This document shows, in pieces, positions 32,353 to 50,826 of a DNA stretch of 64,000 nt. A program made the position numbers and the translations under genes. The stretch's first letter is position 1. Each line of letters opens with the position of its first letter. The DNA comes from Escherichia coli (GTDB lineage Bacteria; Pseudomonadota; Gammaproteobacteria; Enterobacterales; Enterobacteriaceae), in NCBI RefSeq assembly GCF_044324875.1, contig NZ_CP172185.1; one strand, written 5' to 3'. The notes under the pieces are model-generated. The model did not search any database and was not told where the DNA came from. It saw only the letters and a list, made by a program, of their open reading frames with translations.

Positions 32353-32919
32353 TACTTATTTGGTGGACACCACTTTGTCTAATTCGTCAGATTCTGACCA
32401 GACGGTTCAGGCTGTACGCTTACTGACCTTATCGGTCACCGCGCGGATGGTGGCTGTGGAAACGCTGAAGGCATATAAATCTTCAATCTCCCGACTGATA
32501 TCCTGGTAGCTCATTCCCAGCGCAAACAGGCGAATGATCTTGCGTTCGATCTCATCAGACAACGTGGTCTGGTGCTTCTTCACCAGTTGGGGTTAAAAAG
32601 TACCATTACGATCGCGCGGAGTCGCCAGTTCGAAGCTACCGGTCGGGGCTTTAATGGTCTTTTTGCCGGAGCCATTTTTACGATTGGCTTCCACATCCTG
32701 AGCCAGATGGGATTCAAGCTCTGCAGACAGGGCAGCCTAAGTTAACTGCTTGATTAATGACGTTAAGATTCCATCTTTGCCCGTTAATGCCTAGCCGGAC
32801 TGGAGTGCCTTAAGCGCTTTATCGAAATCGAAGGGTTGGGACATGTGTCATTCCTTTTTGATTGTATATTACTGGAATGACACAGAATTTCTAACACTCC
32901 CTTTTTAGATGAAATATAG

Positions 32920-33705
32920 TTAATCTTCGGTATGAATGTGTTGCAGCCAGTTTTTTATTACTGTATTTACTTCCTTTGCATGAGTGATATTTAGAGCGTG
33001 ATTTGCGTCGGGAATAACTTCAAGCTTGGAGTGTGCAATCACTTTGTGCATTTTAATTGCTTTCTCTAATGGGATTCCCATATCACTGTCACCATGAATA
33101 ATCAGTGTGGGGGTTGTGATTGTGTTAATTTTTTCTGAAATATCGTCACGTTCCAGCATTGCATTCATGGCATTTCTGATATTTTCTGGCTTATGTCCCA
33201 TCCATACTTTTTTCCATTTTTCTGCTTCAGAGACATTATTTCCGAAAAAAATGGGTAATAATAAGGAGATTATATTTTCCTTTATGATTGGGTCTTGCCA
33301 TCCATTACATAACTCCATGTAACTGGACGCGATTTCTGGTGGATCTTGCTCTGCCTGAGTTGCCATAAGGATTAGCCCTGACAAACGTTCTGAATGTGAC
33401 AGAGCAAATCGTAATGATATATATCCGCCCATCGACATTCCCCCTAAAACGAACTTATCCATTTGTAGTGAGTCTGCAACGCTTAAAATATCATCAACGA
33501 TATCATAGAGTGAGAAAGCTTCTGTTTTTTCAGTGTTTTTATCAAAACCCCGAACATTAATACAAACAAACCTGTGTTTTTCTTTTAGTTCGTCAAGTTG
33601 ATATTTAAACATGTCACTATTCATGAAAAATCCATGAACGAGTATGACTGGGGGATTATTTTTGTTTGTTTCAGTGTATCCAGAGTCAGCAAATGAATAT
33701 TTCAT
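32920..33705 (-). CDS. Alpha/beta-fold hydrolase (low-GC, likely horizontally acquired)
   Basis: 261 aa; HGFFMN oxyanion-region, nucleophile elbow GGMSMGG, C-terminal His (DANHAL); AT-rich codon usage. Confidence 0.7.
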   Translation of the reverse strand: MKYSFADSGYTETNKNNPPVILVHGFFMNSDMFKYQLDELKEKHRFVCINVRGFDKNTEKTEAFSLYDIVDDILSVADSLQMDKFVLGGMSMGGYISLRFALSHSERLSGLILMATQAEQDPPEIASSYMELCNGWQDPIIKENIISLLLPIFFGNNVSEAEKWKKVWMGHKPENIRNAMNAMLERDDISEKINTITTPTLIIHGDSDMGIPLEKAIKMHKVIAHSKLEVIPDANHALNITHAKEVNTVIKNWLQHIHTED

Positions 33706-34780
33706 GGAGCCTCCTTGATTTAGATGAATATATTGTGTGTTTTGTTAGTAATAGTGAAGCATTTCATTATATTGTCGAACTAGGATATATCTGTTGGATA
33801 AATATCCGTTTTAGAGTTTTTCAAATACTCGCCAGTTAAGACTCTTTTGGTGTGTTTACCAGTCTTGAGATATTGTTGTCAAGTATTTAAAAGGATATAA
33901 ACACACTGATTTAATGCTGATACTTATATATCAATAAATATTACCGGATGCCATGGTTAAAACTGGCTTATTTACTTCAGAAGAACAACGGCTAATGGAG
34001 CGATTGAAGTATTGTGGATATACCTATGCGAAGGTGTTTATGCTCGATTGGTTTTAGCAAACACGATAATATCCGAAAATTGCCTACATGGATAGATTTG
34101 TTAATTGCTATTAGCGGATGGGTAAGATTCATTGATGAGGCGGATTGATGGGCAAAGCCCCAGCCTCACGAACTGGTGGTCTTGAAAGCTTACATATTTC
34201 ATTTATTAAAGACGTAAACGTTTTAACTGTGTGGCATAAAAAGCAGAAGAGTGAAAATCCATAAATTACCGAATTATATCGGTGCCAGTCCGAATTTAGC
34301 CTTTGCACGGTTGCACGACTCATTGACTTCTCAGTTCTCACTGGACATGGCGAATTTTCTGTACGTTGATGAGGGATTTTCATATATCGTACAACAGGCA
34401 TTTCTTCCCGGTATTCCCTCAAGCGCAATACATCGGGGATTTTTCTGATTAGTGCCGATCATGCATCGGTGGAAAGGGGAGGTTTGTTCAGTAAGTCAGG
34501 TGGGGATAGTACCGCCAGCATCATCGGCTTCAGACCAGTAAAAAGAGACGCGGAAAAATATACAACAGGCACCACACGTCATGCATGGATTCAGATCGCT
34601 CATTTTTAGTACCATTTTAAAGTTTGACTTTGTATTTTTGCAACGAATCGCTAAAGAGAGCAGAAAAAACTATTCTCCAAAACTTGGTTATAACTACTTG
34701 ATTTTATAGATAGAGGCATGCTGTTTACACAGCAGTAAAAAGCATGCCAAATTTGCTATTAACCTTTTGAATATAAAATA

Positions 34781-35644
34781 CTAATCGTCTATTTCGGAAA
34801 CCTTCTTATTCAGCAGACGAGAAGCGCGCCAGTAAACCAGCAACATCAGGCCCATTACGATAGTCAGCGTAATGCTGGTGGCTGCACCAAACGGCCAGTC
34901 ACGAATATTGAGGAACTGTACCTTGATGACGTTACCGATCAGCAGGTTTTTCGCACCGCCCATCAGGTCGGACACATAGAACAGGCCCATCGCTGGCAGC
35001 ATCACCAGCAGACATCCGGCAATAATTCCCGGCATCGTCAGTGGGATAATGATGCGGATAAAGGTCTGCAACTTGCTGGCACCGAGATCGCGCGCCGCCT
35101 CAAGCAACGGCTTATCCAGTTTTTCGATACTGGAGTACAGCGGCATCACCATAAACGGTAGCAGAATGTAAACCAGACCGATAATCACCGCACTGGGCGT
35201 GAACATGATGCGAATTGGTGTATCAATAACGCCCAGCCAGAGCAAAAACTCGTTGAGATAGCCTTTGGTGCTGAGGAAAATTTTCAGCCCGTAGATACGA
35301 ATCAATGAGTTGGTCCAGAACGGAACAATCAGCAGAAACAGCAGCAGCGGACGCACCTTGTGTGGCAGCTTCGCCAGAAACCAGGCAAAAGGATAGCCCA
35401 GCACCAGGCAGGCGAGGGTGGCGATCAGCGCCATATTCAGCGAGTGCAATAGCACTTCAAAATAGAGCGGATCGAGCAGACGCGTGTAGTTATCCAGCGT
35501 AAAGACCATTTTGACGAAACTGGCGTCGTCGCGGGTCAAAAAGCTGGTGCCAATGATCATCAGGTTGGGCAGAAAGACAAACAACACAAGCCAACCGACA
35601 ATAGTGACAATCACTACATTCTGGAACTTACTTGTGTTCTTCAT
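34781..35644 (-). CDS. potB: Spermidine/putrescine ABC transporter permease PotB, C-terminal codons differ from the K-12 version as I remember it
   Basis: Matches PotB throughout; K-12 annotated start probably the internal GTG (MIVTIVGW); product here ends ...[12 protein letters not shown] whereas remembered PotB ends ...NKKVELE. Confidence 0.8.
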
Positions 35645-36764
35645 CAGCCAGTACGACCTCCCAGCTTTCTACCCAATTAATGGCCATTTTTTGGTCGAGA
35701 GAGTGGTCAAAGTCAGGATCGTCTTCATTGAAGAATTCGCTGACCATCACCATCTTGCCATTTTCCAGTTCAACAACCGACTCCAGCGTCATGCCTTTGT
35801 AGTTACGCTCGCGAACGTAACCAATCAGCCCTTCAGCGTGGTTGTCGTCGTTAATCTCTTCAACACGTAAGTCTTCCGGGCGCAGCAGAACATGCAGTTT
35901 TTGCCCCGGTTCAACGGCGAAGTTAACGTAGATATTACATTCGCGGCCTTCAACGTTGGCGCGTACGCGCTGCTCGTCTAGACGTTCGATGACAGTGGCG
36001 TTAAACATATTGATTTCGCCAATAAACCCAGCAACAAACAGGTTTTTCGGCTCTTCATAGATTTCACGCGGCGTGCCGTCTTGCTCAATGCGACCATCGC
36101 GCATCACCACAATCCTGTCCGACATGGTGAGTGCTTCTTCCTGGTCGTGAGTCACGAAGACGAATGTAATGCCAAGCTTACGCTGTAACGCTTTCAGCTC
36201 GTTCTGCATTTGCTTGCGCAGTTTGTAATCCAGCGCTGAGAGCGACTCATCCAGCAACAACAGACGAGGCTTGTTAACCACTGCGCGGGCAATGGCGACG
36301 CGTTGCTGTTGACCACCAGAGAGCTGATGCGGTTTGCGTTGAGCGAAGGTTTCCAGCTGCACCATCCGCAGGGCTTCCATCACGCGGGGCGTAATTTCAG
36401 CAGCGGGGGTTTTTTGCATGCGTAACCCAAAGGCCACATTTTCGAACACGGTCATGTGGGGGAAAAGTGCGTAGCTTTGGAAAACAGTGTTCACATAGCG
36501 GTTTTCCGCCGGAACGTGGGTGATGTCCTCGTTATCCAGCATGATGCGTCCGGAATCAACAGTTTCCAGACCTGCAATCAGGCGAAGAACGGTTGTTTTA
36601 CCGCAGCCAGAAGGGCCAAGCAGCGTGAGGAACTCGCCATTGTTGATAGTCAGATCCAGCTGGGGAATGACCTCTTTACCATCAAAGCATTTGCGAATTC
36701 CCGCCAATTGCACCAGCGGTGAAAGCGAACTCGGTTGTTTATTCAATTTTTTACTCTGTCCCAT
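35628..36764 (-). CDS. potA: Spermidine/putrescine ABC transporter ATP-binding protein PotA
   Basis: 378 aa; Walker [10 protein letters not shown], signature [10 protein letters not shown], Walker B LLLDES. Confidence 0.95.
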
Positions 36765-37013
36765 GTAAACGCAACGGATGGCTTACCGATGCGGGGTTTG
36801 TGGTTAACCACCTTGGTGACTCTTAATGAGGGCGGTAATTCTACGGCAAACCGCTTGAATCGCCAATCTTTGTTGTGAATTACTGGCTTAGCTTTATATT
36901 CATTAAGGTAATGCTGATAAATATTCCCGCTTGCAGGGGTAAAAGTGACCTGACGCAATATTTGTCTTTTCTTGCTTCTTAATAATGTTGTCACAAAAAG
37001 TGAGGGTGACTAC

Positions 37014-38240
37014 ATGGATAAACTACTTGAGCGATTTTTGAACTACGTGTCTCTGGATACCCAATCAAAGGCAGGGGTGAGACAGGTTCCCAGCACGGAA
37101 GGCCAATGGAAGTTATTGCATCTGCTGAAAGAGCAGCTCGAAGAGATGGGGCTTATCAATGTGACCTTAAGTGAGAAGGGCACTTTGATGGCGACGTTAC
37201 CGGCTAACGTCCCTGGCGATATCCCGGCGATTGGCTTTATTTCTCATGTGGATACCTCACCGGATTGCAGCGGCAAAAATGTGAATCCGCAAATTGTTGA
37301 AAACTATCGCGGTGGCGATATTGCGCTGGGTATCGGCGATGAAGTTTTATCACCGGTTATGTTCCCGGTGCTGCATCAGCTACTGAGTCAGACGCTGATT
37401 ACCACCGATGGTAAAACCTTGTTAGGAGCCGATGACAAAGCAGGTATTGCAGAAATCATGACCGCGCTGGCGGTATTGCAACAGAAAAACATTCCGCATG
37501 GTGATATTCGCGTCGCCTTTACCCCGGATGAAGAAGTGGGCAAAGGGGCGAAACATTTTGATGTTGACGCCTTCGATGCCCGCTGGGCTTACACCGTTGA
37601 TGGTGGTGGCGTAGGCGAACTGGAGTTTGAAAACTTCAACGCTGCGTCGGTCAATATCAAAATTGTAGGCAATAACGTTCACCCAGGCACAGCGAAAGGT
37701 GTAATGGTGAATGCGCTGTCGCTGGCGGCACGTATTCATGCGGAAGTTCCGGCGGATGAAAGCCCGGAAATGACAGAAGGCTATGAAGGTTTCTATCACC
37801 TGGCGAGCATGAAAGGCACCGTTGAACGGGCCGATATGCACTACATCATCCGTGATTTCGACCGTAAACAGTTTGAAGCGCGTAAACGTAAAATGATGGA
37901 GATCGCCAAAAAAGTGGGCAAAGGGTTACATCCTGATTGCTACATTGAATTGGTGATTGAAGACAGTTACTACAATATGCGCGAGAAAGTGGTTGAGCAT
38001 CCGCATATTCTCGATATCGCCCAGCAGGCGATGCGTGACTGCGATATTGAACCGGAACTGAAACCGATCCGCGGCGGTACCGACGGCGCGCAGTTGTCGT
38101 TTATGGGATTACCGTGCCCGAACCTGTTCACTGGCGGTTACAACTATCATGGTAAGCATGAGTTTGTGACTCTGGAAGGTATGGAAAAAGCGGTGCAGGT
38201 GATCGTCCGTATTGCCGAGTTAACGGCGCAACGGAAGTAA
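37014..38240 (+). CDS. pepT: Peptidase T (tripeptide aminopeptidase)
   Basis: 408 aa from [13 protein letters not shown]20 family metal-binding motifs (HVDT, GADDKAG). Confidence 0.95.
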
Positions 38241-38288
38241 GCGAAAAGGGATGCGGCATGTGATGCCGCATCCGGCTTAAATCCAAAC

Positions 38289-39410
38289 TTACCCTTCGAA
38301 GAACCAATACCCGCTATTGACCAGCGCCGCGAGCATCGCGAGGAATGACGGATCTTCCAGCGCATCGCCAAAATTCTCCGCAGTCAGCGCAATGTTGCTG
38401 GCGAGTGCATCCAGTGCCGGACGGTGCGGGGAATCGATCTTCTCACCATTGGCATACACGTCGTCGCCAATGCGCAATACGCGCAGACCACCCAGACGCA
38501 CCAGCACTTCACCTTGTTTCAGCGCATCGTAGATTTCATCCGGCTGATAAGGCGGCTCTGGCGGCGCGATATCCAGTTCATGGCGTGACTGGGATATAAA
38601 CTCCCCAAACCATTGCTTAAAGTGTTCCGGCTGGTTGATCAATTCGAGCATCATCTCACGCAGTTTATCCATCTCTTGCGGCAGAACATCCGCAGGATGA
38701 GCGCGAGGTGAAACATCAGGATCGCTGTAGTAGTTGCCGCCCAGTTCACGTTGCAGCACATAATCGGCAAATCCGCTAATCAGTTCCCGCGTATTTGGTG
38801 CGCGAAAACCGACGGAATAGTTCATCGCATTTTCCAGCGCGTAGCCTTCATGGGGGAATCCTGGCGGAATATAAAGAATATCGCCTGGCTCCAGTTCTTC
38901 ATCAATGATGGCTTCGAACGGATCAACCTGTAACAGATCCGGGTGCGGGCAGTGCTGTTTCATTTGCAGCTTTTCGCCCACTCGCCAGCGACGACGTCCG
39001 GTACCCTGAATGATAAACACGTCGTACTGATCGAGATGCGGGCCGACGCCGCCGCCAGGTACAGAAAAAGAGATCATCAGATCATCAATACGCCAGTCCG
39101 GTAGTTCACGGAACGGTCGCATCAGCGCGGCGGTCGGCTCATGCCAGTGGTTCACTGCCTGCACTAACAATGACCAGTTAGTTTCACCGAGATGATCGTA
39201 GCTTTCGAACGGGCCGTGGCTGACCTGCCATTTGCCATCCTGGTGGCTGACCAGTCGACTGTCGACTTCGCTTTCCATCGCCAGACCCGCCAACTCGTCT
39301 GGAGAGATCGGGTCAATAAAATTATTAAAGCCGCGTTTTAACACCACCGGACGTTTCTGCCAGTGACGTTCAAGAAAATCGGGCCAGTTAAGAGTGAGTT
39401 GGTATTCCAT
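38289..39410 (-). CDS. roxA: Ribosomal oxygenase RoxA (YcfD), JmjC/cupin family
   Basis: 373 aa from MEYQLTLNWPDFLERHW; synteny with pepT. Confidence 0.9.
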   Translation of the reverse strand: MEYQLTLNWPDFLERHWQKRPVVLKRGFNNFIDPISPDELAGLAMESEVDSRLVSHQDGKWQVSHGPFESYDHLGETNWSLLVQAVNHWHEPTAALMRPFRELPDWRIDDLMISFSVPGGGVGPHLDQYDVFIIQGTGRRRWRVGEKLQMKQHCPHPDLLQVDPFEAIIDEELEPGDILYIPPGFPHEGYALENAMNYSVGFRAPNTRELISGFADYVLQRELGGNYYSDPDVSPRAHPADVLPQEMDKLREMMLELINQPEHFKQWFGEFISQSRHELDIAPPEPPYQPDEIYDALKQGEVLVRLGGLRVLRIGDDVYANGEKIDSPHRPALDALASNIALTAENFGDALEDPSFLAMLAALVNSGYWFFEG

Positions 39411-39611
39411 GTTAAGCATCCACAGGCTGGTATCTGCAACCGATTATAACGGATGCTTAACGTAATGCGTGAAGTATGGGCATACTTTATCAATTAGTGT
39501 TTTTTGCCGTTTCATAATGTTTCAGGTTGTGCATTATGTTTTTGATTATAAACAAATTTGTGATTTTTCTTGTTCCAGCTTGTTTCACGTTGTAGCCCTT
39601 TGTGCAACGAT

Positions 39612-39637
39612 CGGTGTAGTTAATGGTGTAGTTAATT
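39612..39637 (+). repeat. attL core: 26-bp direct repeat cggtgtagttaatggtgtagttaatt
   Basis: Identical copy at 50721-50746; itself contains an internal tandem gtgtagttaat duplication. Confidence 0.8.
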
Positions 39638-40888
39638 GTGATGACCGGATTCAAAATTATGAGCAGAGCACTTAACAAGCTGAGCGATACACAGCTAAGG
39701 AAAATCAACGGCACACCCGCCCAAAAAACAGCCTTTCTTAATGACGGTGGAAACTTGAGCGTCAGGCATTCAACCAGCGGCCTTTTAACCTGGTATTTCA
39801 CTTACAGGGCCGGAACGGGAAGGGGGGCATCACCGGAACGCATTAAGCTGGGAAATTATCCTGATCTGAGCCTGAAATCAGCCAGGGAAAAAGCCGCCCA
39901 GTGTCGCGCATGGCTGGCTGAGGGGAAAAATCCACGTCATGAGATGAATTACACCGTACAGGAAGCGTTAAAGCCTGTAACGGTTGGCGATGCGCTCACC
40001 TACTGGCTTGAGTCGTACGCAAAGGAAAACCGTGTGGATTATGACCCACTGAAAAAGCGGCTAAATAATCACGTAATACAGCACATTGGCCCTATGCCGC
40101 TGGATAAATGCGAGCTACGGCACTGGCTGGCCTGTTTTGATCGGGTGGCAAAGCAAGCCCCTGTTTCCGCCGGGTTCCTGCTACAGACATGCAAACAGGC
40201 GCTTAAGTTCTGCCGGAAGCGGCGCTATGCAATCAGCAACGTTCTTGATGATATGAGTGTGGCTGACGTTGGGAAAAAACCGGATATAGGCGAACGTGTC
40301 TTAAGTACCAAAGAACTGGGCGAATTATTGCAGGCACTGGACAAAAAAATATTTTCCCCTTACTACGTCGCACTAATCCGCCTCCTGATTGTTTTCGGAT
40401 GCCGGACAGTAGAACTGAGGTTATCGGAGATCGGCGAGTGGGATTTTACCGAAATGCTCTGGACCGTTCCGAAGGAGCACAGCAAAACGAAGGTAGCCAT
40501 ATTCCGGCCCATACCGGAAGCGATACTGCCGTTCGTCACGCAGCTGATGGAGCAGAACAGGCACACGGGCTTATTGCTGGGGGAAGTGAAACAGGAAACC
40601 AGCGTGTCGCAGTACGGCAGATTAGTGCACAGGAGGCTTAAACACCCTCACTGGTCACTGCATGACATCCGGCGCACCTTTACAACGATGCTGAACGATT
40701 TAGGCGTGGATCCTCACGTCGTGGAGCAGCTTACAGGCCACCAGATGCCAGGAATGCAGCGAGTTTATAATCATTCCCGTTATCTGGATGCGAAACGCAA
40801 TGCGCTGGATATGTGGACGGAGCGGTTAGGGATACTGGCGGGAGCACATGAAAACGTAACCACGCTACCAGTAACCAGAAGAAAATAA
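39638..40888 (+). CDS. int: Tyrosine-type site-specific integrase (P4-like family)
   Basis: C-terminal catalytic signature (…HDIRRTFTTML…GHQMPGMQRVYNHSRYLD…); true start possibly at MSRALNKLS (39659). Confidence 0.85.
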   Translation: MMTGFKIMSRALNKLSDTQLRKINGTPAQKTAFLNDGGNLSVRHSTSGLLTWYFTYRAGTGRGASPERIKLGNYPDLSLKSAREKAAQCRAWLAEGKNPRHEMNYTVQEALKPVTVGDALTYWLESYAKENRVDYDPLKKRLNNHVIQHIGPMPLDKCELRHWLACFDRVAKQAPVSAGFLLQTCKQALKFCRKRRYAISNVLDDMSVADVGKKPDIGERVLSTKELGELLQALDKKIFSPYYVALIRLLIVFGCRTVELRLSEIGEWDFTEMLWTVPKEHSKTKVAIFRPIPEAILPFVTQLMEQNRHTGLLLGEVKQETSVSQYGRLVHRRLKHPHWSLHDIRRTFTTMLNDLGVDPHVVEQLTGHQMPGMQRVYNHSRYLDAKRNALDMWTERLGILAGAHENVTTLPVTRRK

Positions 40889-40937
40889 TTTTTTTCGTGT
40901 TTTTTCAGTATGCGCATACTGGATAAGTGCACAGATA

Positions 40938-40969
40938 CAACGTGAAACAATAAGCAACAACGTGAAACA
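40938..40969 (+). repeat. Two direct copies of CAACGTGAAACA (candidate integrase arm-type or regulator binding sites)
   Basis: Copies at 40938-40949 and 40958-40969; inverted copies tgtttcacgttg at 39581-39592 (near attL) and tgttccacgttg at 50690-50701 (near attR). Confidence 0.5.
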
Positions 40970-41262
40970 ACCACGAACAAGAGGTCAAAAAGTATACAGA
41001 TTTATAAGTTGCTGATTTTTAATGCTCAACTGGTTTTTTATACATTAGCGAATAACGCTTTAAATAGTGAGAAAAAAGTCATAAAACGAGATTTTATGCC
41101 TTTGCATAATACTGAATTAAAATGATTTTTATTAAAATCACCCCGTTTCTGTAAAATACCCGCCACCAACATTTGCCAACTCTGAATCACCCTGACACAA
41201 TCAGACACATCCCAACGCAATAGAACACGAAATAACTCTTTAAGAAACGAAAGGGGGCAATA

Positions 41263-41451
41263 GTGTTAAGCACTGATCGGTTTATACGTGAAAAAGAATG
41301 CGAAAAGCTAACAGGCCTTAGCCGCTCATGCCGCTACCGCCTGGAAAAGGCCGGACAATTCCCATCACGGCGTAAGCTGGGCGGTCGTTCCGTTGGCTGG
41401 TCTTTATCCGAAGTTCTGGCATGGAAGGAAAGCTGCGAGGCAGTTCACTAA
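41263..41451 (+). CDS. AlpA/Xis-like small DNA-binding protein
   Basis: 62 aa; ...KECEKLTGLSRSCRYRLEKAGQFPSRRKLGGRSVGWSLSEVLAWK matches AlpA-type wHTH. Confidence 0.7.
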   Translation: MLSTDRFIREKECEKLTGLSRSCRYRLEKAGQFPSRRKLGGRSVGWSLSEVLAWKESCEAVH

Positions 41452-41777
41452 AAAGACTGGCGGCACACAGCCGCCACCCATCCACTAATACAGAGATTTA
41501 ACCATGAAGACTGGATATACGCCCGAACAGGGGCGGGGCTTCGTTCGGCCTGGTGAAACTGAAAAACAACAAAATCGCGGTTTTTCAGGCATAAAAAAAG
41601 CGGCCCCGATAAGGAGCCGCCTTTCTGAACAATTAACCTACAGCGCAAAAAATGAATCTGAGCAGTGGGATTATATCAACCGTGCAACGAAGCGCCACAA
41701 TTGCCGGATAACGGGCAAAGAAAAGGCCACCTGTCACGGTGGCCAATGTGATCAGTGTGGTGGCTTGCTGGTGGCTA

Positions 41778-41969
41778 TCAACCTTTGGGTTCTATACCGC
41801 GCCGCTTTAGTTCAGCGCGCCCCAACTCTTTAAGCCAGTTGGCTAGGCTTATGCCGTCGCTCTGCGCTTCTTTGTCGAATTGCTCTTTTAGCTCTGGAGA
41901 AATTCGCATTCTGAATTGTGGGGATTGCCCATCACCCTTAGGGCTTTTATCACGTTTGATTGTTGACAA
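41778..41969 (-). CDS. Arc/MetJ-type ribbon-helix-helix DNA-binding protein (candidate island repressor)
   Basis: 63 aa; FRMRISPELKEQFDKEAQSDGISLANWLKELG; transcribed divergently from the replication operon. Confidence 0.55.
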   Translation of the reverse strand: MSTIKRDKSPKGDGQSPQFRMRISPELKEQFDKEAQSDGISLANWLKELGRAELKRRGIEPKG

Positions 41970-42103
41970 GTGGTCACCTATTAAATTAGCCTTTCTATTG
42001 TTAGGTGGTCACCTTAACACGGGGACACTTAAAAAAGCAAAGCCCGAAGGCGCTAGGAACACCAACGGGCTTCTAACCACAAACCGTTATGAGAGGTAGT
42101 TTT

Positions 42104-42301
42104 ATGGCTGTAAGACAGCATACCCCACGACTAGCGCACACACAAACCGCCTTTGTGTGGCGTTTTCTGGCACTGAGTGCCGGAGAATCTCAAATCATCC
42201 ACGTAACCGCCTGGACGGAACGCGAAGCGCGTAGCCGTTGCCCGTCCGGTTGTGTTGCTGTATTCGCCGCCCGTATTCGTCAGGGGGTGTACCATGATTA
42301 A
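42104..42301 (+). CDS. Small hypothetical protein, first gene of rightward operon
   Basis: 65 aa from ATG 42104 with RBS gagagg; unknown family. Confidence 0.45.
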   Translation: MAVRQHTPRLAHTQTAFVWRFLALSAGESQIIHVTAWTEREARSRCPSGCVAVFAARIRQGVYHD

Positions 42302-42662
42302 CCTGTCACTTACCGATCTTAACCGCGTTCAGTTTCGTGAGAAATTTACCGGACAGCTACTCGTCAATGTGGAGAACGGGCGCATAGTGCGTAATTATCA
42401 CCTGCCGGATGGTGCAATTGCCGGAAGCGTTGAAGCATTGCTGGAACTGGCGGAACGTGCGCGACTGATTAAGCCGTCAACGAGCCATCACGATGATGAT
42501 CTGCATTTTACCGGATGTATGGTGAGTCACTACGAAAACGGCGTCGAGGTATCCTGCGAACGGCTGCGTGATGATTGCTGTTTCGGCACACTGCCGGAAT
42601 TTATCGAATTGCTGACCAGTTGCGGATATCAGGTTATTCAGGGGGTGCGCCATGTGCAATAA
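42294..42662 (+). CDS. Hypothetical protein (122 aa)
   Basis: Start MINLSLTDL overlaps upstream gene end; unknown family. Confidence 0.5.
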   Translation: MINLSLTDLNRVQFREKFTGQLLVNVENGRIVRNYHLPDGAIAGSVEALLELAERARLIKPSTSHHDDDLHFTGCMVSHYENGVEVSCERLRDDCCFGTLPEFIELLTSCGYQVIQGVRHVQ

Positions 42663-43107
42663 CATCCGTCCGGACGCAGCAGGCGAAGCCATCATAACGC
42701 TAATGCACGCGCTGATTGATATTTCATGCACGGCAGCAACCGCAGAAAAACACATTACCAGAGAGCCGGAATATACAGGGGCAATAATCCCGCATTCGCT
42801 GGCCTACGCACAGCTAACCGCTGATATGGCGCTGAATGAGGCTAAAGCCATCCTGATTGCTGATTGTGAAAATGGGGGGGGGGTTATGCGTGATGATCGT
42901 TTTAATTCCCTGAAACAGGAATTTTCCGGCGTTCCTGATAATGCGGCTGATGCGCTTTCGTCAATATCTGAAATTATGCGGGTGGCTTTTTTCTTTCTTT
43001 GCACTGATGAGCACAGGGATACAGGGCTAAATATTCTTGATATCGCCGCTAATTATGCTGATTTCGTAACGGAAACTGTTTTAAGAAAAACGACGGACGG
43101 GGATTAA
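42652..43107 (+). CDS. Hypothetical protein (151 aa)
   Basis: Overlapping start with previous gene; unknown family. Confidence 0.5.
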   Translation: MCNNIRPDAAGEAIITLMHALIDISCTAATAEKHITREPEYTGAIIPHSLAYAQLTADMALNEAKAILIADCENGGGVMRDDRFNSLKQEFSGVPDNAADALSSISEIMRVAFFFLCTDEHRDTGLNILDIAANYADFVTETVLRKTTDGD

Positions 43108-43108
43108 T

Positions 43109-43342
43109 ATGCGTGATATTTACCACGAAACAATAGACCGCGCATTTCTTGCACTTTCTCACAGTGAAAATATGTTGGAAATATTGCGCATATGTCTTGA
43201 AACGCTTGGAGATAATGAACGTGATAAACAGAAATCAATGATTGTCACGGCATTAATAACGCTTCTTGAGCCTGTAATAAATGAGTTGCAGGAAATAGAG
43301 ACATTACACGACCAGTATAAAGCGCCCCACACCGGAGAATAA
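43109..43342 (+). CDS. Hypothetical protein (77 aa)
   Basis: Tightly packed in operon; unknown family. Confidence 0.45.
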   Translation: MRDIYHETIDRAFLALSHSENMLEILRICLETLGDNERDKQKSMIVTALITLLEPVINELQEIETLHDQYKAPHTGE

Positions 43343-43347
43343 AAAAC

Positions 43348-43635
43348 ATGAAAAATAAAAATTCTGGCGTTAATGCCAGCGGCCCCGCTCGTCCTGAAAT
43401 CCGTCCCGGCGATATTTTCCGTGATAACTACGGCGGCACGGTAATGATTAAGGGCGTGGAAGAACGGCGCGTAACCTACCGCCGTGATGGCTACGAATAT
43501 GACTGCGTTATGCCTGTTTATCAGTTCCGGCGTGATTTCACGCTGGTGGGCCATCGTAAAGCCGTTAATCAGAAACGTGCTGCAAGTTATATCCGCAAAA
43601 TCCGTGAAATGCTGGTCGCAGGGGGTAAGAAATGA
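43348..43635 (+). CDS. Hypothetical basic protein (95 aa)
   Basis: Overlaps helicase gene start (ATGA); unknown family. Confidence 0.45.
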   Translation: MKNKNSGVNASGPARPEIRPGDIFRDNYGGTVMIKGVEERRVTYRRDGYEYDCVMPVYQFRRDFTLVGHRKAVNQKRAASYIRKIREMLVAGGKK

Positions 43636-45038
43636 AACTTGCACCGAACGTAAAACTGTTACCGAAAGATAAACACACTGAGGCGGTTATTTTTGCGGGT
43701 GATAATGCTCACTCCTTTGCAGAACATTACATGATTGCACAGGCCAAAAAAGCAGGCGATCCCATCCCTCCGGTTTACCTGGGCCGTTATCAGTTAAGCG
43801 AACTGGACAACTTACAGATTGTTGATGAAGGACGATACAGGGCAAAGGTCATACGCGCCGGAAACCTGGACGATATGCAGATGCTGACCATTGCCACAAA
43901 ACTGGCGATCGCCGGAGTCCAGGAGGCGCGCCTACTTTCTGAAAATTTCGAACTGCTGGAGGACTGGAGCGACCAGCTACCACGACTACGGGAAACATGG
44001 GAGAGAGGGGAAAGCCTGGTCATGAATGGCGGAAAGCGAAAAATCACACTTCCCATCTCATGGGGTTCTGAGGGATTCGATGCGCAGCAAAGCTACGTCA
44101 TTAAGGGGCTTATTCCGGCTGAGTCATTATGCAGCACCTACGGGGCCAGCGGTTCTTATAAATCGTTCCTCGCCATTTCCTGGTCGTGCCATGTTGCCAC
44201 AGGTATGGCATGGGGAGGCCGCAGGGTAAGTAAGGGTGCGGTTATCTATATCGCTGGCGAAGGCAGCATGGGCGTAAAACGCCGCGTTAAGGCGTGGGAG
44301 ATAACCCACGACAAGGTGGTTACAGATTTGTGCATCATTAACGCGCCTGTTTTCCCTGCATCGCCTGACTATGTGGAGCAGGTTATCAGGACTGCCGGAC
44401 TTGTTAAGAGCAGAACGGGCGAAAATGTGCGGCTGATTGTGATCGACACGCTGGCCCGTTGCTTTGGTGGGAATGATGAAAATGATTCCCGTGATATGGG
44501 CGCATTTATCCAGGGGTGTGACGCGATAAAGCAGGCCACAGGGGCCACGGTGCTGGTGGTTCACCATTCCGGCAAGGATGAAACAAAGGGGGCGCGTGGT
44601 TCCAGTGCATTCCGTGCCGCGCTTGATGCAGAGTACCGAATCAGCCGCGAAAATTCAGACGTTACAGCACTGGTCGCAGCATGTACGAAGATGAAGGACG
44701 CAGAGGAGCCAAAAGAGAGCGCATACGACCTTAAAAGCGTGGAGGTGTTCACCGATACAGATGGCGAAGAAATTGTGTCCATGGTGGTGATTGACGTTCC
44801 CCGCGCCCCTGCTGAACTGGAGCGCATCGAGGAGGCAGGCAACAAGACGGAAAACCATACCGCGCTATGGGGGTGCATCCGTTCACGCACACAGAACGGC
44901 GACAAGTGCACGATCCCGCTGTTACGTGATGACATGAAACGGCTTGGGTATGACGTGAAAAATATGCGGCGATGGTTAGCCAAACTGGAAAAAGACGCCG
45001 TGATTTACATTGATGGTGATGATGTAGGACCACTGTAA
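43632..45038 (+). CDS. Replication protein, RecA-fold P-loop ATPase/helicase (RepA/DnaB-like, satellite pri-rep position)
   Basis: 468 aa; P-loop-like YGASGSYKS, Walker-B-like LIVIDTL, followed immediately by iteron cluster. Confidence 0.7.
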   Translation: MKLAPNVKLLPKDKHTEAVIFAGDNAHSFAEHYMIAQAKKAGDPIPPVYLGRYQLSELDNLQIVDEGRYRAKVIRAGNLDDMQMLTIATKLAIAGVQEARLLSENFELLEDWSDQLPRLRETWERGESLVMNGGKRKITLPISWGSEGFDAQQSYVIKGLIPAESLCSTYGASGSYKSFLAISWSCHVATGMAWGGRRVSKGAVIYIAGEGSMGVKRRVKAWEITHDKVVTDLCIINAPVFPASPDYVEQVIRTAGLVKSRTGENVRLIVIDTLARCFGGNDENDSRDMGAFIQGCDAIKQATGATVLVVHHSGKDETKGARGSSAFRAALDAEYRISRENSDVTALVAACTKMKDAEEPKESAYDLKSVEVFTDTDGEEIVSMVVIDVPRAPAELERIEEAGNKTENHTALWGCIRSRTQNGDKCTIPLLRDDMKRLGYDVKNMRRWLAKLEKDAVIYIDGDDVGPL

Positions 45039-45238
45039 AAAGTGAGTAGTAAAAGTGAGTAATGGTGAGGTTTTTACAAAATATTAACACAATTACTCAC
45101 TTTCTCACCTGTATACATGCTCAAAAGTGAGCAGTGAAAAAACACTTATGAAACATGCACATATAAAACACAAAAATCTCAAGTGAGACGAAGTGAGACG
45201 CTTTAAAAAGTGAGTAGTAAAAGTGAGAGATGGTGAGC
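45037..45238 (+). repeat. Iteron cluster, putative island replication origin
   Basis: Multiple aaaagtgag / ggtgag repeats in both orientations around an AT-rich spacer (tttttacaaaatattaacacaatta), directly downstream of helicase gene. Confidence 0.65.
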
Positions 45239-45239
45239 A

Positions 45240-45608
45240 ATGAATAAAAACCGAACAGCAGGACAAAATACCGAAGGTAAATTTATGAACACTGAAATTG
45301 AAACACTGAGCATATCAACTGCCCTTCCTGGCTGGTGGGCTAAGTTCAAAGACGACGACGGCACGGAATGGTATAGCCCAATTGCTGCATGGGCGCTTTG
45401 TGATATCCACCATTTCGGCACCGGAGATACTTACCGCGAAATCTTACCCGTGCTGACCAGTGAGCTGGGCATGAGTCCGCATAGTCCTGATGAGGGAATG
45501 TGCGAGTGCCTTTATCTGCCGGATAAGAAGTTTGTTCACTGTGGTGAATCGATGGTATTTGCCTGGTATCCGGTTAACGACAGCAGCAATAGCGGTACTC
45601 TGGAGTAA
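45240..45608 (+). CDS. Hypothetical protein (122 aa; alternative start at 45285)
   Basis: ORF after ori; unknown family. Confidence 0.45.
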   Translation: MNKNRTAGQNTEGKFMNTEIETLSISTALPGWWAKFKDDDGTEWYSPIAAWALCDIHHFGTGDTYREILPVLTSELGMSPHSPDEGMCECLYLPDKKFVHCGESMVFAWYPVNDSSNSGTLE

Positions 45609-45611
45609 ATC

Positions 45612-45854
45612 ATGAAGGTAAACCACAAAAAGACAGATCACCGCGCCATTGACCTTACAGAGCACTGGCTGAGGGTGGCGATAAAAATCATCGACCGCAA
45701 CACGGGGGAAGGATACGCGAAAGCACATCCCGAACTGATAAGTGCATTCATGACCACAGCGGCGGCAAACTTTGCCACGCTGACAGAGCGGGATATTGCC
45801 GAAGCAGAACAGGTAACAACCATCAACGTTAAAACCAGTGAGGTGGAATCATGA
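45612..45854 (+). CDS. Hypothetical protein (80 aa)
   Basis: ORF overlapping ssb start; unknown family. Confidence 0.45.
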   Translation: MKVNHKKTDHRAIDLTEHWLRVAIKIIDRNTGEGYAKAHPELISAFMTTAAANFATLTERDIAEAEQVTTINVKTSEVES

Positions 45855-46261
45855 CAGCACAGATAGCGGCTTACGGGCGGCTGGTGGACGACCCGCAGGT
45901 AAAACAGACCAGTAAGGGTACACCGATGACGCTGGCGCGTATGGCGGTATCTTTACCATGCGGCCAGGCACAGGACGGACAGGCGACGTTATGGTTATCG
46001 GTCATCGCATTTGGCAAACAGGCCGACTTTCTGGCTAAACATCAAAAAGGCGACGTTGCCAGCGTATCCGGCACGATGCAGGTCAGCCAGTGGACCGGAC
46101 AGAACGGGGAAACGCGGCAGGGTTATCAGGTTATTGCAGACAGCGTAATCAGTGCCCGTGCGGCACGTCCTGGCGGGAACAGACGCAAAACCACAGGCAC
46201 ACAGGGTAATCAGCCACCAGCGGGAGGCGATGACCCTTACGGTGATGATATTCCGTTCTGA
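45851..46261 (+). CDS. Single-stranded DNA-binding protein (short SSB)
   Basis: 136 aa OB-fold-like with Gly/Pro-rich tail ending in acidic DDIPF, as in E. coli SSB. Confidence 0.7.
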   Translation: MTAQIAAYGRLVDDPQVKQTSKGTPMTLARMAVSLPCGQAQDGQATLWLSVIAFGKQADFLAKHQKGDVASVSGTMQVSQWTGQNGETRQGYQVIADSVISARAARPGGNRRKTTGTQGNQPPAGGDDPYGDDIPF

Positions 46262-46271
46262 GGGGGTGACG

Positions 46272-46544
46272 ATGGTACATGACCGCATAGCGGAGGAACT
46301 CGAGGCAAAAGGATTTTACCGGAGGGCGGCGGCGCGATGGGGTGAAGTTATGAGGCTGGTGAGCACTGACAAGGAGCGCGAACAGGTGGCAATGCGACGG
46401 CTGGAATGTTCCCTGAAGGCACAGAGGCCACCGGAGCCGCCGGATGATTTAGGCGCTCTGAAAAGGTCAGTTAATCGCACTGAAAAACAAATGGGGATAG
46501 CTGGTATTGGCAAAGCAATATGGCGCAACTACCCGCAGAAGTGA
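46272..46544 (+). CDS. PerC-family transcriptional regulator homologue
   Basis: 90 aa from MVHDRIAEELEAKGFYRRAAARW (RBS aggggg); resembles PerC/Pch family N-terminus as remembered. Confidence 0.55.
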   Translation: MVHDRIAEELEAKGFYRRAAARWGEVMRLVSTDKEREQVAMRRLECSLKAQRPPEPPDDLGALKRSVNRTEKQMGIAGIGKAIWRNYPQK

Positions 46545-46551
46545 GCACACA

Positions 46552-46573
46552 GCCGGAGCAATCCGGCTTTTTT
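46552..46573 (+). terminator. Rho-independent terminator after perC-like gene
   Basis: gccgga-gcaa-tccggc followed by tttttt. Confidence 0.7.
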
Positions 46574-46585
46574 ACGCCTAAAAAA

Positions 46586-46622
46586 AGCCCGATAAGGTCA
46601 AAGGGGGCTTATCGGGCTTTTG
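46586..46622. terminator. Second hairpin, possibly bidirectional terminator
   Basis: 11-bp stem agcccgataag / cttatcgggct flanked by A-run and T-run. Confidence 0.5.
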
Positions 46623-46784
46623 TAGAGGAGGTTTTTTATGGTGCACTGGCACACATGATCGGGATAATCATTTCATAATTTGCAACATAACTCAATATTG
46701 TTGCGCAAAATGCAATCATGATTATAATCAGGACTGGATGAACATCCAGTTATGATTTTTTAAGTCAAAGAGGAATTTCTGACT

Positions 46785-46991
46785 ATGGCAGAAGAGAAAA
46801 AAGGCGGGGTGACGGTCTACATAAGCCCCGACATCGTGGAGGCGCTCAAGGAACGCCACCAGCAGAATGTAAAAGCAGGCATTGCGGCAGGACTTGATCC
46901 GCTGGCGATGGTTGAGCCGTCAACAGGCTGGCAGGTGCGTACCTATTTACGTGCGGCGCTGGGTATCAATCAGGTTCACGGAGGTGAATAA
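46785..46991 (+). CDS. Small hypothetical protein preceding capsid gene
   Basis: 68 aa; stop overlaps capsid gene ATG. Confidence 0.45.
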   Translation: MAEEKKGGVTVYISPDIVEALKERHQQNVKAGIAAGLDPLAMVEPSTGWQVRTYLRAALGINQVHGGE

Positions 46992-48046
46992 TGACAGGCA
47001 AAGCAAAGGCACTTACAACTAACCAGCTTTTCGCGTACCTGAATCGCGGGGATATTTCGGAATATAAATTTAGTCCGCTGTTTACCACGCTGTTTTTCCC
47101 GAACGTGGCGACCTTCAACACCCAAAACATCATGCTGGACACCCTGGACATTGAAGAGGTTACGATGTCAGCGTTCTGTTCTCCTATGGTGGGTAGTCAG
47201 GTCCAGCGCGATAAAGGGTACGAAACCAGCACGATTAAACCAGGCTACATGAAGCCAAAGCACGAAATCGATCCAACAAAGACCATCATGCGCATGGATG
47301 GAGAAGATCCGGCACAGCTTAACGATCCAACTTACCGCCGTATGCGCCTGATTACTGGCAACATGCGCCGCCAGATAAACGCCATTAAGGCGCGCGTGGA
47401 ATGGCTGGCGGTGAATGCGGTAACGACCGGAAAAAACATCATTGAGGGCGAAGGCATAGAACGCTATGAAATCGACTGGAAAATACCGGAAAACTGCATC
47501 ATACAGCAGGCCAGTGGTAAAAAATGGTCCCAGCAGGATAAAGACATGCACGACCCAATCTATGACATCGAGCTTTATGCTGATCAGGCAGGTTGCCCCG
47601 CCAACGTCATGATTATGGGCGGTGAGGTATGGCGCACATTACGCAGCTTTAAAAAATTCCGTGAACTGTACGATCTTTCCCGTGGATCAGAATCCGCCGC
47701 CGAGCTGGCCTGTAAAAACCTGGGCGAAGTGGTGAGCTTTAAAGGCTATCTTGGTGATCTGGCCCTTATCGTCTATTCCGGCAAATACACTGACAGCGAC
47801 GGGACCGAAAAATATTTCCTTGAGCCTGATTTGCTGGTCCTGGGTAACACCAACAATAAAGGGCTGGTGGCATATGGTGCGATTATGGATCAGGAAGCGG
47901 TAAGAACGGGCGCAACGCAAAACATGTACTACCCGAAAAACTGGATTGAGGACGGCGATCCGGCGATTGAGTACGTGCAGACGCACAGCGCACCGCAGCC
48001 TGTACCGGCAGATATTCGCAAATTTGTTACCGTCAAAATTGCTTAA
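46991..48046 (+). CDS. Lambda gpE-family major capsid protein homologue
   Basis: 351 aa; collinear similarity to lambda E (KFSPLFTTLFF / KFDPLFLRLFF; PGYMKPKHEI / PGYVKPKHEV; DPTYRRMRLI / DPAYRRRRII; YYPKNWIEDGDPAIEY / RYPKNWVTTGDPAREF). Confidence 0.8.
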   Translation: MTGKAKALTTNQLFAYLNRGDISEYKFSPLFTTLFFPNVATFNTQNIMLDTLDIEEVTMSAFCSPMVGSQVQRDKGYETSTIKPGYMKPKHEIDPTKTIMRMDGEDPAQLNDPTYRRMRLITGNMRRQINAIKARVEWLAVNAVTTGKNIIEGEGIERYEIDWKIPENCIIQQASGKKWSQQDKDMHDPIYDIELYADQAGCPANVMIMGGEVWRTLRSFKKFRELYDLSRGSESAAELACKNLGEVVSFKGYLGDLALIVYSGKYTDSDGTEKYFLEPDLLVLGNTNNKGLVAYGAIMDQEAVRTGATQNMYYPKNWIEDGDPAIEYVQTHSAPQPVPADIRKFVTVKIA

Positions 48047-48057
48047 CGGGGGATTCT

Positions 48058-48393
48058 ATGGACGCTCCATACATTGAGTTATTTTCAGGCAGCCAACAGG
48101 TATCCACGACGCTGGTACATTTTGCCGCTGATGCTGGCGTTATTCAGGAATTTACCCCGCTGATGCTGGCAGACAATGGCGAGTTTAAGCCGTGGGATGG
48201 TAAGGAATCTGGCAAGGCTGTTTATCTGACCTCGTACCCTGTGGACACGTCAAAGCAGAAATCAGCACAGTGTTACAAGACGGGGATATTCAATATTGCC
48301 GCCGTTAACTGGCCTGACAGCGTCGACACCGATGCGAAAAAATGCGCCGCCTTTGCGGGTTCCGGCGTATCCGTTCAGCCGCTGGCCCGATAA
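48058..48393 (+). CDS. Lambda gpD-like head decoration protein homologue
   Basis: 111 aa; C-terminal GIFNIAAVNWPDSVDTDAKKCAAFAGSGVSV parallels lambda D [32 protein letters not shown]. Confidence 0.7.
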   Translation: MDAPYIELFSGSQQVSTTLVHFAADAGVIQEFTPLMLADNGEFKPWDGKESGKAVYLTSYPVDTSKQKSAQCYKTGIFNIAAVNWPDSVDTDAKKCAAFAGSGVSVQPLAR

Positions 48394-48467
48394 GCAGGGG
48401 GAACGATGGCACAAACCAGGGCGATGACGGCGACATCTATCGCATACTGAAAACCATCTGAGACAAG

Positions 48468-48490
48468 GCCGGAGAAATCCGGCTTTTTTT
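48468..48490 (+). terminator. Rho-independent terminator after decoration gene
   Basis: gccgga-gaaa-tccggc followed by ttttttt; near-duplicate of terminator at 46552. Confidence 0.7.
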
Positions 48491-48492
48491 GC

Positions 48493-48620
48493 GGGTCCTT
48501 TCCGGCATGTGGACCCGTTACGGGGCGTCGACCTCGCACGTTTTCGCTATTTATGAAAATTTTCCGGGAAAAAGCATGTCAGTTCTTCTTGTTATTAACA
48601 TATTGTTTTTAAAGAAATAA
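48493..48620 (+). promoter_or_regulatory. Lambda-type cos site (cosQ/cosN/cosB-like) upstream of terS
   Basis: gttacggggcgtcgacctcgcacgttttcgctatttatgaaaattttccgg closely matches remembered lambda cos (gttacggggcggcgacctcgcgggttttcgctatttatgaaaattttccgg); putative cosN gggcgtcgacct at 48523-48534. Confidence 0.75.
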
Positions 48621-48710
48621 CTATCAAGAAAGAAACGACATCATAATGATGAAAAATCTGTTTTTTTTGGCATTTCATGTCGTAACTGATTTTTGATAAG
48701 GAATTGCTGA

Positions 48711-49295
48711 ATGAATGTTAATAAAAAGAGGCTTGCCGAAATTTTTAACGTGGACCCGCGGACGATTGAACGCTGGCAGTCACAGGGGCTTCCTTGCGTC
48801 TCCAAAGGCAGTAAGGGCATTGAATCTGTATTTGATACTGCCATGGCAATTCAGTGGTATGCGCGGAGGGAAACTGATATCGAAAACGAAAAGCTCCGCA
48901 AAGAACTGGACGATTTGCGTGCGGCAGCGGAGTCAGATTTACAACCCGGCACCATTGACTATGAACGCTATCGGCTCACAAAAGCGCAGGCAGATGCGCA
49001 GGAACTTAAAAACGAGCGCGATCGCGGTGACGTGATTGATACAGAGTTTTGCATGTACGCGCTTTCAAAACTGGCGAGTCAGATTTCATCAATCATGGAC
49101 AGCCTCCCGCTTACTATGCAAAGGAGCTTCCCACAGATGACCCCCGCCATGCTGGATGGCCTGAAAAAAGAAGTTGTCAGAGCCTGTAACGCATGCACAA
49201 AACTTGATGAAAACATCCCGCGAATGCTGTCCGATTATCTGATGGAAACTACCGGAAATGTGCCTGATAAGTTTCAGCCGGATAAAGACAAGTAA
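48711..49295 (+). CDS. Terminase small subunit, lambda Nu1-like
   Basis: 194 aa; [28 protein letters not shown]...[29 protein letters not shown] parallels lambda Nu1 (MEVNKKQLADIFGASIRTIQNWQEQGMP...[29 protein letters not shown]). Confidence 0.85.
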
Positions 49296-49536
49296 CGTAG
49301 TGCACAATGACCGAAGCCAGTTTACTGACTGGCTTTCAGCGTTGCGCTGGTGGGCGTTATGCGTCAGTGATAAACGTCTCCAATATTACTGATATTCGAC
49401 ATCCCCACCTCTCCACACCAGCTCGAATATCATTTTTCTCATTAAAAACAGGACATTAAAAACTGGTCAGATGTCCCATAAAAAGCCAAATGGGACAGGT
49501 CAAAAGCTTTTTTTGCAGTAATTTTCAATAGGTTAC

Positions 49537-49935
49537 TTGATGTGGTGGTGTCCCATGAAAATTCAAAAATCAGCCGTTTTCCGCGATGCTCCCGCCCCGT
49601 GGCAGGGCACCCCACAAGGAGGACCCGCCATCACTATGGAGGACATGACCATGACCGAGACCGAAGCGCTCGGGATAATCCGCAGTATTACCGGAATCAG
49701 CCAGCAGGCTGGCGAACAGGAGGCCACGCAGCCGGACAGCGTGATCGCCGAAAATTACGTGCGTGTTGTTGCTGATGTAATGCGCCGTGATGGTATTGAG
49801 CTTAACGGCGTGGATATGCGCGACATACGAATCAGAGTACTAGAGTTGCTGGCATACCGTCGACGCGTGGCGATGTATCAGGAGAGCGCGAAAAACACTT
49901 ATCAGTGGAAGAAGCCGGAGCGGTTACGGCGGTAA
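49537..49935 (+). CDS. Hypothetical protein downstream of terS (likely shorter, start near 49651)
   Basis: ORF of 132 aa; RBS ggagg favours ATG around 49651 giving about 95 aa; unknown family. Confidence 0.4.
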   Translation: MMWWCPMKIQKSAVFRDAPAPWQGTPQGGPAITMEDMTMTETEALGIIRSITGISQQAGEQEATQPDSVIAENYVRVVADVMRRDGIELNGVDMRDIRIRVLELLAYRRRVAMYQESAKNTYQWKKPERLRR

Positions 49936-50290
49936 CTGGTTGATATTTTCGAAATTCGCCAGCGGCGAACATCGGGGAAACCAGCCTAACCAGTTGATTC
50001 TTTCGGAAACAGCCATTGGCGGAATCCGGCGCGGTAACTTGCTGATATTCCCGATAACGCAAAATTGCGCTGGCTACATCCCTCACATCTGAGGACTGAT
50101 AATGCGACATTGCGCTGGCTGGCAAAGTGCAAAATTGCACGATGGCCTAACCCATTGATTATTTCGAAAACCTGCAATGCAGGAAATCGGGGAAGTAAGC
50201 CTAAGCTATTGATTCTTTCGGAAACCTCAATTTGAGGAAGTCGGCGCGGTAACTCGCTGAACTTAAAGCAAACCTCAAAATTGAGCTGGC
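49932..50290 (+). repeat. Array of four degenerate repeats of a ttgattctttcggaaac-like motif with associated short palindromes
   Basis: Motif variants ggttgatattttcgaaat (49938-), cagttgattctttcggaaac (49991-), cattgattatttcgaaaac (50154-), ctattgattctttcggaaac (50205-); cggcgcggtaact at 50028 and 50242. Confidence 0.6.
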
Positions 50291-50720: not shown

Positions 50721-50746
50721 CGGTGTAGTTAATGGTGTAGTTAATT
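50721..50746 (+). repeat. attR core: second copy of 26-bp direct repeat
   Basis: cggtgtagttaatggtgtagttaatt identical to 39612-39637. Confidence 0.8.
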
Positions 50747-50826
50747 TGCGATTTTTGGCACTTTTGTTTGTGTATATTTTTAATTAAATCAATACATTAA
50801 CTAATATCGGTGATAAAAGGGCATAT

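Follow-up and report, generated by a model that had tools for sequence, protein, structure and literature searches.

In the 64,000-nucleotide stretch of Escherichia coli DNA analysed here (hereafter, the window), an AT-rich open reading frame lies beside potB. The questions it raises are what kind of enzyme it encodes, whether it is a working gene, and how it came to occupy this place. The original prediction put an alpha/beta hydrolase gene at the very positions that the list of open reading frames returns, 32920-33705. The frame has an ATG start and comprises 786 nt, or 261 codons, on the minus strand. The gene and its functional sites are as follows.

32920-33705, minus strand: coding sequence of an alpha/beta-fold serine hydrolase, 261 aa (open reading frame, Pfam, alignment of the catalytic triad, AlphaFold)
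33710-33716, minus strand: Shine-Dalgarno sequence AAGGAGG of the hydrolase gene, 4 nt before the ATG (read from the sequence)
33435-33433, minus strand: codon of the nucleophile S91 (alignment with 4uhc, conserved)
33084-33082, minus strand: codon of D208 (alignment with 4uhc, conserved)
33000-32998, minus strand: codon of H236 (alignment with 4uhc, conserved)

Membership of the alpha/beta hydrolases, for which an HMM search had been suggested as the check, is borne out by Pfam. The Abhydrolase_1 profile (PF00561) matches with E = 2.9e-29 and 102.9 bits, against a cut-off of 25.8, and the match runs over the full model (positions 1-244 of 245). An open reading frame of 786 nt in AT-rich DNA combined with such a full-length match is far beyond chance. 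The best solved relative by sequence is an esterase from Thermogutta terrifontis (4uhc; E = 1e-34). In the alignment with 4uhc, Ser91, Asp208, and His236 fall on the catalytic serine, aspartate, and histidine, and H24-G25-F26 aligns with the HGF oxyanion motif. The predicted nucleophile elbow, GGMSMGG, is present at residues 88-94, and with it the whole Ser-Asp-His triad is intact and conserved. Loss of catalytic residues on careful alignment would have counted against the prediction; instead, none of H24, S91, D208, and H236 varies among 30 relatives, the most distant of which share 26% identity, or across 12 loci, and G25 shows at least 90% conservation.

An AlphaFold model built on the alignment of 30 relatives has a pLDDT of 93.4 and a pTM of 0.92. 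It shows the canonical order of strands and helices, with a four-helix cap at residues 123-184, and the nucleophile elbow (G89-M-S91-M-G93) comes straight after the strand formed by residues 85-90. The first strand of the fold consists of residues 5-7, and the mean pLDDT of residues 1-10 is 85. Given that the fold begins at residue 5 and that the hydrolase has no signal peptide, the protein is cytoplasmic. A Foldseek search of the PDB placed the T. terrifontis structures 4uhc-4uhh at the top (TM 0.89-0.90, 30% identity), followed by a gut feruloyl esterase, a Pseudomonas aryl esterase, the enol-lactonase PcaD, and cofactor-free haloperoxidases. Further neighbours include the butenolide hydrolases KAI2/D14 and the AHL-degrading Est816; in all, there were 1,843 PDB matches at E ≤ 0.001. 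Each defining feature that we examined was present, and the protein is a canonical member of the alpha/beta fold.

The substrate class is more difficult to specify than the fold. PHROGs puts the protein in a generic esterase/lipase family, and RefSeq already labels its relatives "alpha/beta fold hydrolase". The NCBIfam equivalogs for PcaD, BioH, RutD, MenH, macrolide esterases, and PHA depolymerase all scored far under their cut-offs. Three identities were considered and rejected because neither the score thresholds nor the genomic context support them: PcaD (TIGR02427; 100.7 bits against an equivalog cut-off of 255.85, and no pca genes near the hydrolase), BioH (TIGR01738; 86 bits against 206.95), and the macrolide esterases EstT, EstX, and NF052610 (66.4 against 420, 58.4 against 450, and 42.7 against 600, respectively). 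As no curated equivalog was passed, the chemistry can be assigned only by analogy at the level of the fold. By analogy with the T. terrifontis esterase (TtEst) and with PcaD-like enzymes, the protein is most likely a short-chain carboxylesterase or a lactonase. The original prediction had left esterase, lipase, and lactonase open; esterase or lactonase is favoured, and the missing signal peptide and the small cap make a true lipase the weakest candidate. In the proposed mechanism, His236 and Asp208 would activate Ser91 on the GMSMG elbow, and Ser91 would attack the carbonyl of a small ester or lactone. The oxyanion would be stabilised by the His24-Gly25 backbone region, and water would then free the acyl-enzyme. 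So described, the hydrolase is an ordinary uncharacterised enzyme of a known fold class and leaves current understanding unchanged.

The base composition of the gene is foreign. Its GC content is 36.5%, with 32.8% at third codon positions (GC3), compared with 50.6% for potB, 50.8% for potA, and 53.6% for roxA, host genes nearby whose GC3 is 58-68%. The AT-rich, foreign codon usage noted at the outset is thus confirmed, at 36.5% GC against about 51% in potA and potB. The set compared comprises seven E. coli alleles (81-92% nucleotide identity) together with four distant relatives (42-51% amino acid identity), all of which are intact open reading frames. Pairwise Nei-Gojobori dN/dS against the seven E. 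coli alleles is 0.15-0.22, at dS of 0.26-0.79, which indicates clear purifying selection and supports the earlier view that the gene makes a working protein. As many as 250 contigs encode the exact protein, and eight independent loci are 99.9-100% identical to positions 32424-34800 of the window. In E. coli E24377A a frameshift breaks the allele in two, and the gene is therefore dispensable. Taken together, these sequence comparisons indicate that the hydrolase gene is real and probably working.

We found no convincing sigma-70 promoter upstream of the hydrolase, a consensus scan giving fewer promoter-like sites than shuffled sequence, and conservation among alleles reaches only ~55-63 nt before the ATG. 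No terminator-like site was predicted in 32500-34900. Since the hydrolase is co-directional with potA and potB, and no terminator is predicted in the ~1.1 kb between them, read-through from potAB is possible. Transcription could thus come from potAB read-through or from an unrecognised promoter of the gene's own. In E. coli, H-NS frequently silences AT-rich DNA of foreign origin. The lack of a recognisable promoter, the E24377A frameshift, and the decay of the neighbourhood count against function.

The position of the gene, between IS remnants and the potB junction, is as originally described. What the original prediction did not recognise is that the hydrolase is prophage cargo. The neighbouring features, from potB through the prophage arm, are as follows.

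34781-35644, minus strand: potB with a prophage-derived 3' end (alignment with K-12)
34280-34602, minus strand: frameshifted pseudogene of the YkgJ family, with a CxxCxxCC cysteine cluster (sequence, Pfam PF03692)
33769-34300, no strand assigned: AT-rich spacer from the YkgJ-like pseudogene to the hydrolase, 532 bp, with only short broken open reading frames
32407-32860, minus strand: pseudogene fragments of an IS256/Mutator-family transposase (Pfam Transposase_mut, in-frame stops, gene calls in L007, collinearity)
29982-32423, minus strand: IS66-family element with three open reading frames, transposase of 512 aa (open reading frames, comparison of the window with locus L007)
28411-28695, minus strand: DinI-like gene of the prophage right arm (Pfam DinI, 4.1e-18; gene calls in loci L006-L013)
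26735-28043, plus strand: IS3-family element (rve and HTH_21 domains; absent from L007)
24596-26714, plus strand: genes for a YadA-like trimeric autotransporter and a sigma-70 region-4-like protein (Pfam, PHROGs, comparison with L007 and E. coli SCU-115)

Homology to the K-12 potB-potC junction ends at 34800/34801, the right-hand limit of the prophage (attR side). In the window, potB ends in ...NKKVSEIDD, where the K-12 protein presumably ends in ...NKKVELE; phages that integrate into the 3' end of a gene typically leave such a change within its last codons. With the last potB codons replaced by the prophage, and with potC and potD lying outside the window, the potABCD operon is physically split.

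The prophage arm itself is best seen in locus L007, which encodes an identical protein. Its order is potA, potB, hydrolase, DinI, sigma-like gene, YadA-like gene, tail-fibre assembly, tail fibre, and gpJ. In the genomes with the identical protein, a spacer of ~1 kb separates potB from the hydrolase and a Mutator-family fragment lies between the hydrolase and the DinI-like gene. The sigma-70 region-4-like, YadA-like, tail-fibre-assembly, tail-fibre, and gpJ genes run convergently with the hydrolase side. This gene order is that of the right arm of a lambdoid prophage, and the slot of the hydrolase is the variable region between the tail-fibre genes and attR at potB. Positions 23821-36000 of the window are collinear with the prophage arm of L007 but for two later insertions, of the IS3 and IS66 families. 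The hydrolase is therefore terminal cargo (a "moron") of a lambdoid prophage integrated in the 3' end of potB: it occupies a variable prophage slot outside the core phage modules, and its base composition is unlike that of the host. The most fitting description is that of the last intact cargo gene at the prophage end.

The DNA on either side of the hydrolase is in decay. The PF03692 match of the YkgJ-like pseudogene was obtained on a frame-corrected translation made by hand; a YkgJ-family gene is also annotated as incomplete in E. coli KFu019, and a YkgJ-like remnant (75-79% nucleotide match) adjoins the hydrolase in prophages at prfC and dusA. The spacer at 33769-34300 is identical in the eight exact-allele loci (L006-L013), is missing from the other prophages with the gene (it does not align to the prfC or dusA loci), and matched none of 5,426 complete E. 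coli genomes; a broken small plus-strand open reading frame within it has no Pfam match. Directly downstream of the hydrolase come the IS256/Mutator fragments. The IS66-family element sits inside this older remnant, which resumes at ~29542-29981, past the insertion, and in the uninterrupted locus its two flanks have 8 bp in common. The IS3-family element has a flank overlap of 4 bp and contains an ALIL frameshift pseudoknot at 27070-27186, the only hit in an Rfam scan of 26000-41000. Both elements are apparently complete and recent insertions relative to the otherwise identical loci.

Several observations concern the wider window. The YadA-like gene contains tandem-like internal repeats of ~100-114 bp at 25305-25713, and their copy number differs among the window, L006, and L007. 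The YadA-like/sigma-like module of the prophage arm is also found in an island next to ynj. For its first ~23.8 kb, the window matches E. coli SCU-115 at 98.4-99% identity, with the gdhA/ynj region and the island beside it. This gdhA/ynj part is inverted relative to K-12, and the potAB/pepT side keeps the K-12 orientation. The gdhA/ynj part (1-26734) meets the potAB part (28044-36000) in the YadA-like/sigma-like module that occurs in both the island and the prophage arm. The sequence arrangement would fit recombination between the two module copies, giving a large inversion across the terminus region; it is also possible that the join is an assembly artefact. A second island, at 39638-50800 between roxA and phoQ, contains genes for a P4-type integrase, an AAA_25 replication protein, SSB, a PerC-family activator, major capsid protein E, and a Nu1 small terminase. 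The island resembles a capsid-encoding phage satellite (PICI-like element), and in related genomes AlpA and an integrase are found between roxA and phoQ as well.

Relatives of the hydrolase gene are present in 29 of 5,426 complete E. coli genomes, all of them chromosomal and at 81.6-91.9% nucleotide identity; the exact allele of the window is not among these 5,426 genomes. In the eight loci inspected, the relative always lies at a prophage end, convergent with and just past tail-fibre or tail-fibre-assembly genes. The attachment sites are prfC, dusA, and ompW, with a further prophage end in APEC IMT5155; four different attachment sites are represented. The carrier prophages differ in their tail modules, some being of the gpJ type and others of the baseplate J/gp47 type. 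In IMG/VR, the gene is found on three viral contigs, each time ~1 kb from an end. A tblastn search of deposited phage genomes returned no close relative, the best matches having <30% identity and coming from unrelated phages, so that no named phage is a carrier of the gene. One APEC prophage, phiv142-3, has been studied for serum survival through its orf6 and orf10 (PMC7724020); the knockout primers match neither our loci nor the window, and the study therefore concerns other genes.

The distant relatives (42-51% identity) are also found on mobile or virulence-type DNA. On conjugative IncF plasmids of E. coli and Salmonella, relatives stand last behind chaperone-usher fimbrial operons; another lies near bundlin, DsbA, and EAL genes; yet another adjoins a type III polyketide synthase on a conjugative plasmid of Photobacterium damselae. 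The relative with 42% identity is found on the opposite strand within a Ysc-type type III secretion cluster (locus L025, 7001-7795, on metagenome contig ERZ25073293), placed between an LcrR-like gene and translocator and chaperone genes. An IS-flanked relative has speE/speD-like, solute-binding, and aldehyde dehydrogenase genes beside it. This is the 51% relative of three E. coli contigs (L019-L021), which lies between the solute-binding protein and aldehyde dehydrogenase genes; an AdoMet decarboxylase-like gene is upstream in 3/3 and a spermidine-synthase-like gene is also found in L021. The cluster could be a small polyamine-related module. A polyamine link of the hydrolase, suggested by potB and by these speE/speD-like genes, was considered and rejected because the same gene also sits at prfC, dusA, and ompW; potB is merely the attachment site.

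From this evidence, we consider it probable that the gene encodes a soluble cytoplasmic serine esterase or lactonase carried as a moron at the right end of the prophage in potB. It would be lysogenic-conversion cargo, placed in the variable region that separates the tail-fibre genes from the attachment site and transcribed through potAB read-through or from its own unrecognised promoter. The gene might instead be a silent passenger, an intact but unexpressed relic of a decaying prophage arm that contributes nothing to the cell. The pseudogenes and three IS elements that flank it speak for such a relic, as do the unrecognised promoter, the frameshifted E24377A allele, and the occurrence of the gene in merely 29/5,426 complete genomes. 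Selection at dN/dS of 0.15-0.22 across alleles speaks against this reading, and a perfect Shine-Dalgarno sequence, an identical sequence on 250 contigs, and a direction shared with potAB, with no terminator predicted in between, argue against it as well; we regard it as unlikely. A narrower chemistry is also conceivable, namely that of a dedicated lactonase for enol-lactones, butenolides, or AHLs, not a general carboxylesterase, which might for example quench a lactone signal for the lysogen. The enol-lactonases PcaD and PcaDC are indeed the best NCBIfam profiles, and PcaD (2xua), the AHL-degrading Est816, and KAI2/D14 are among the structural neighbours. Against this stand scores far under the equivalog cut-offs (for PcaD, 100.7 against 255.85), surroundings free of pca and quorum-sensing genes, and a nearest relative, by sequence and by structure, that is a short-chain carboxylesterase. 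We accordingly give the dedicated lactonase a low probability.

The genomic setting also invites two further readings. A virulence or colonisation factor directed at the host or the cell surface, possibly a secreted effector, would match the slot between tail-fibre genes and attachment site, which is used for type III effectors in the lambdoid prophages of pathogenic E. coli. The 42-51% relatives in a Ysc-type cluster, behind fimbrial operons, and near bundlin/DsbA/EAL genes point the same way, as does a PerC-like regulator gene nearby in the window. A type III effector is made less likely, however, by the fold, which starts at residue 5 and leaves no room for an N-terminal secretion signal; the AlphaFold model has no disordered N-terminus. 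Moreover, the gene is carried by APEC and ExPEC strains, which to our knowledge are without the LEE secretion system, and no known effector family resembles the hydrolase; this reading is very unlikely. An anti-phage defence or superinfection-exclusion gene would likewise suit the variable slot, as prophage ends are hot spots for such genes, and SMODS and SLATT genes lie ~3.4 kb from the relative in APEC IMT5155. The PADLOC-DB 2.0 defence models gave no match to the hydrolase at E ≤ 0.01, the gene has no conserved partner except the YkgJ-like pseudogene, and we know of no single-gene alpha/beta-hydrolase defence system. Such a role appears extremely improbable.

If the cytoplasmic esterase or lactonase is active, it would add to the cases in which a host gains a metabolic or surface-modifying function from its prophage. 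A role at the interface of the cell with its host or with phage is hinted at by the repeated siting of the gene near tail-fibre genes, fimbrial operons, and a secretion system, and of all its features only these recurring contexts deserve to be pursued. Nearly all of the distant copies have a low GC content, 30-40%. A bolder idea, which we consider distinctly unlikely, is that the gene and its relatives form a distinct low-GC family of mobile-element esterases in Enterobacteria and relatives, acting on a specific surface- or host-related ester or lactone. In this view, members sit where tail-fibre genes meet the attachment site in unrelated prophages, and more distant ones behind fimbrial operons on conjugative virulence plasmids and within a type III secretion cluster. 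Were this true, for example by de-O-acetylation of a surface-polysaccharide precursor or degradation of a signal lactone, the phage susceptibility or colonisation of the lysogen would change. As a small soluble esterase the protein is easy to test, and it is without a characterised close relative (best ~30% identity).

Among known systems, the NanS-p sialate O-acetylesterases resemble the hydrolase in being accessory esterases on lambdoid (Stx) prophages of E. coli. They differ from it in their SGNH-type fold with DUF1737, their place in the late region downstream of stx, and their known substrate, and no search run on the hydrolase showed any similarity to them. EstT and EstX are likewise mobile-element-borne alpha/beta hydrolases of Enterobacteria, with detectable similarity (E = 1e-10 to 1e-12), but they score only 58-66 bits against cut-offs of 420-450, and the hydrolase is without an integron or resistance context. 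The aryl esterase of Pseudomonas fluorescens and the haloperoxidase-perhydrolase group (1va4, 3fob, 1a8s) have the fold class and four-helix cap in common with it (E = 1e-20 to 1e-21, TM 0.83), whereas their sequence identity is 20-25% and their genes are chromosomal and of a housekeeping type. PcaD (TIGR02427; 2xua) is among the best-scoring curated profiles and has a structural TM of 0.86, but its identity is only ~19-20%, its score of 100.7 bits compares with the required 255.85, and the genes of the beta-ketoadipate pathway are not near the hydrolase.

The closest known enzyme is TtEst (4uhc-4uhh), the best match both by sequence (E = 1e-34) and by structure (TM 0.89-0.90, rmsd ~2.1 Å). 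TtEst is a cytoplasmic enzyme that acts on C1-C3 esters (PMC4655241). It comes from a thermophilic planctomycete, has not been described within a mobile element, and shares only ~30% identity with the E. coli hydrolase. Common to both proteins are the GxSMGG elbow, the Ser-Asp-His order, and the HGF oxyanion motif, together with a helical cap, a similar length, and the lack of a signal peptide.
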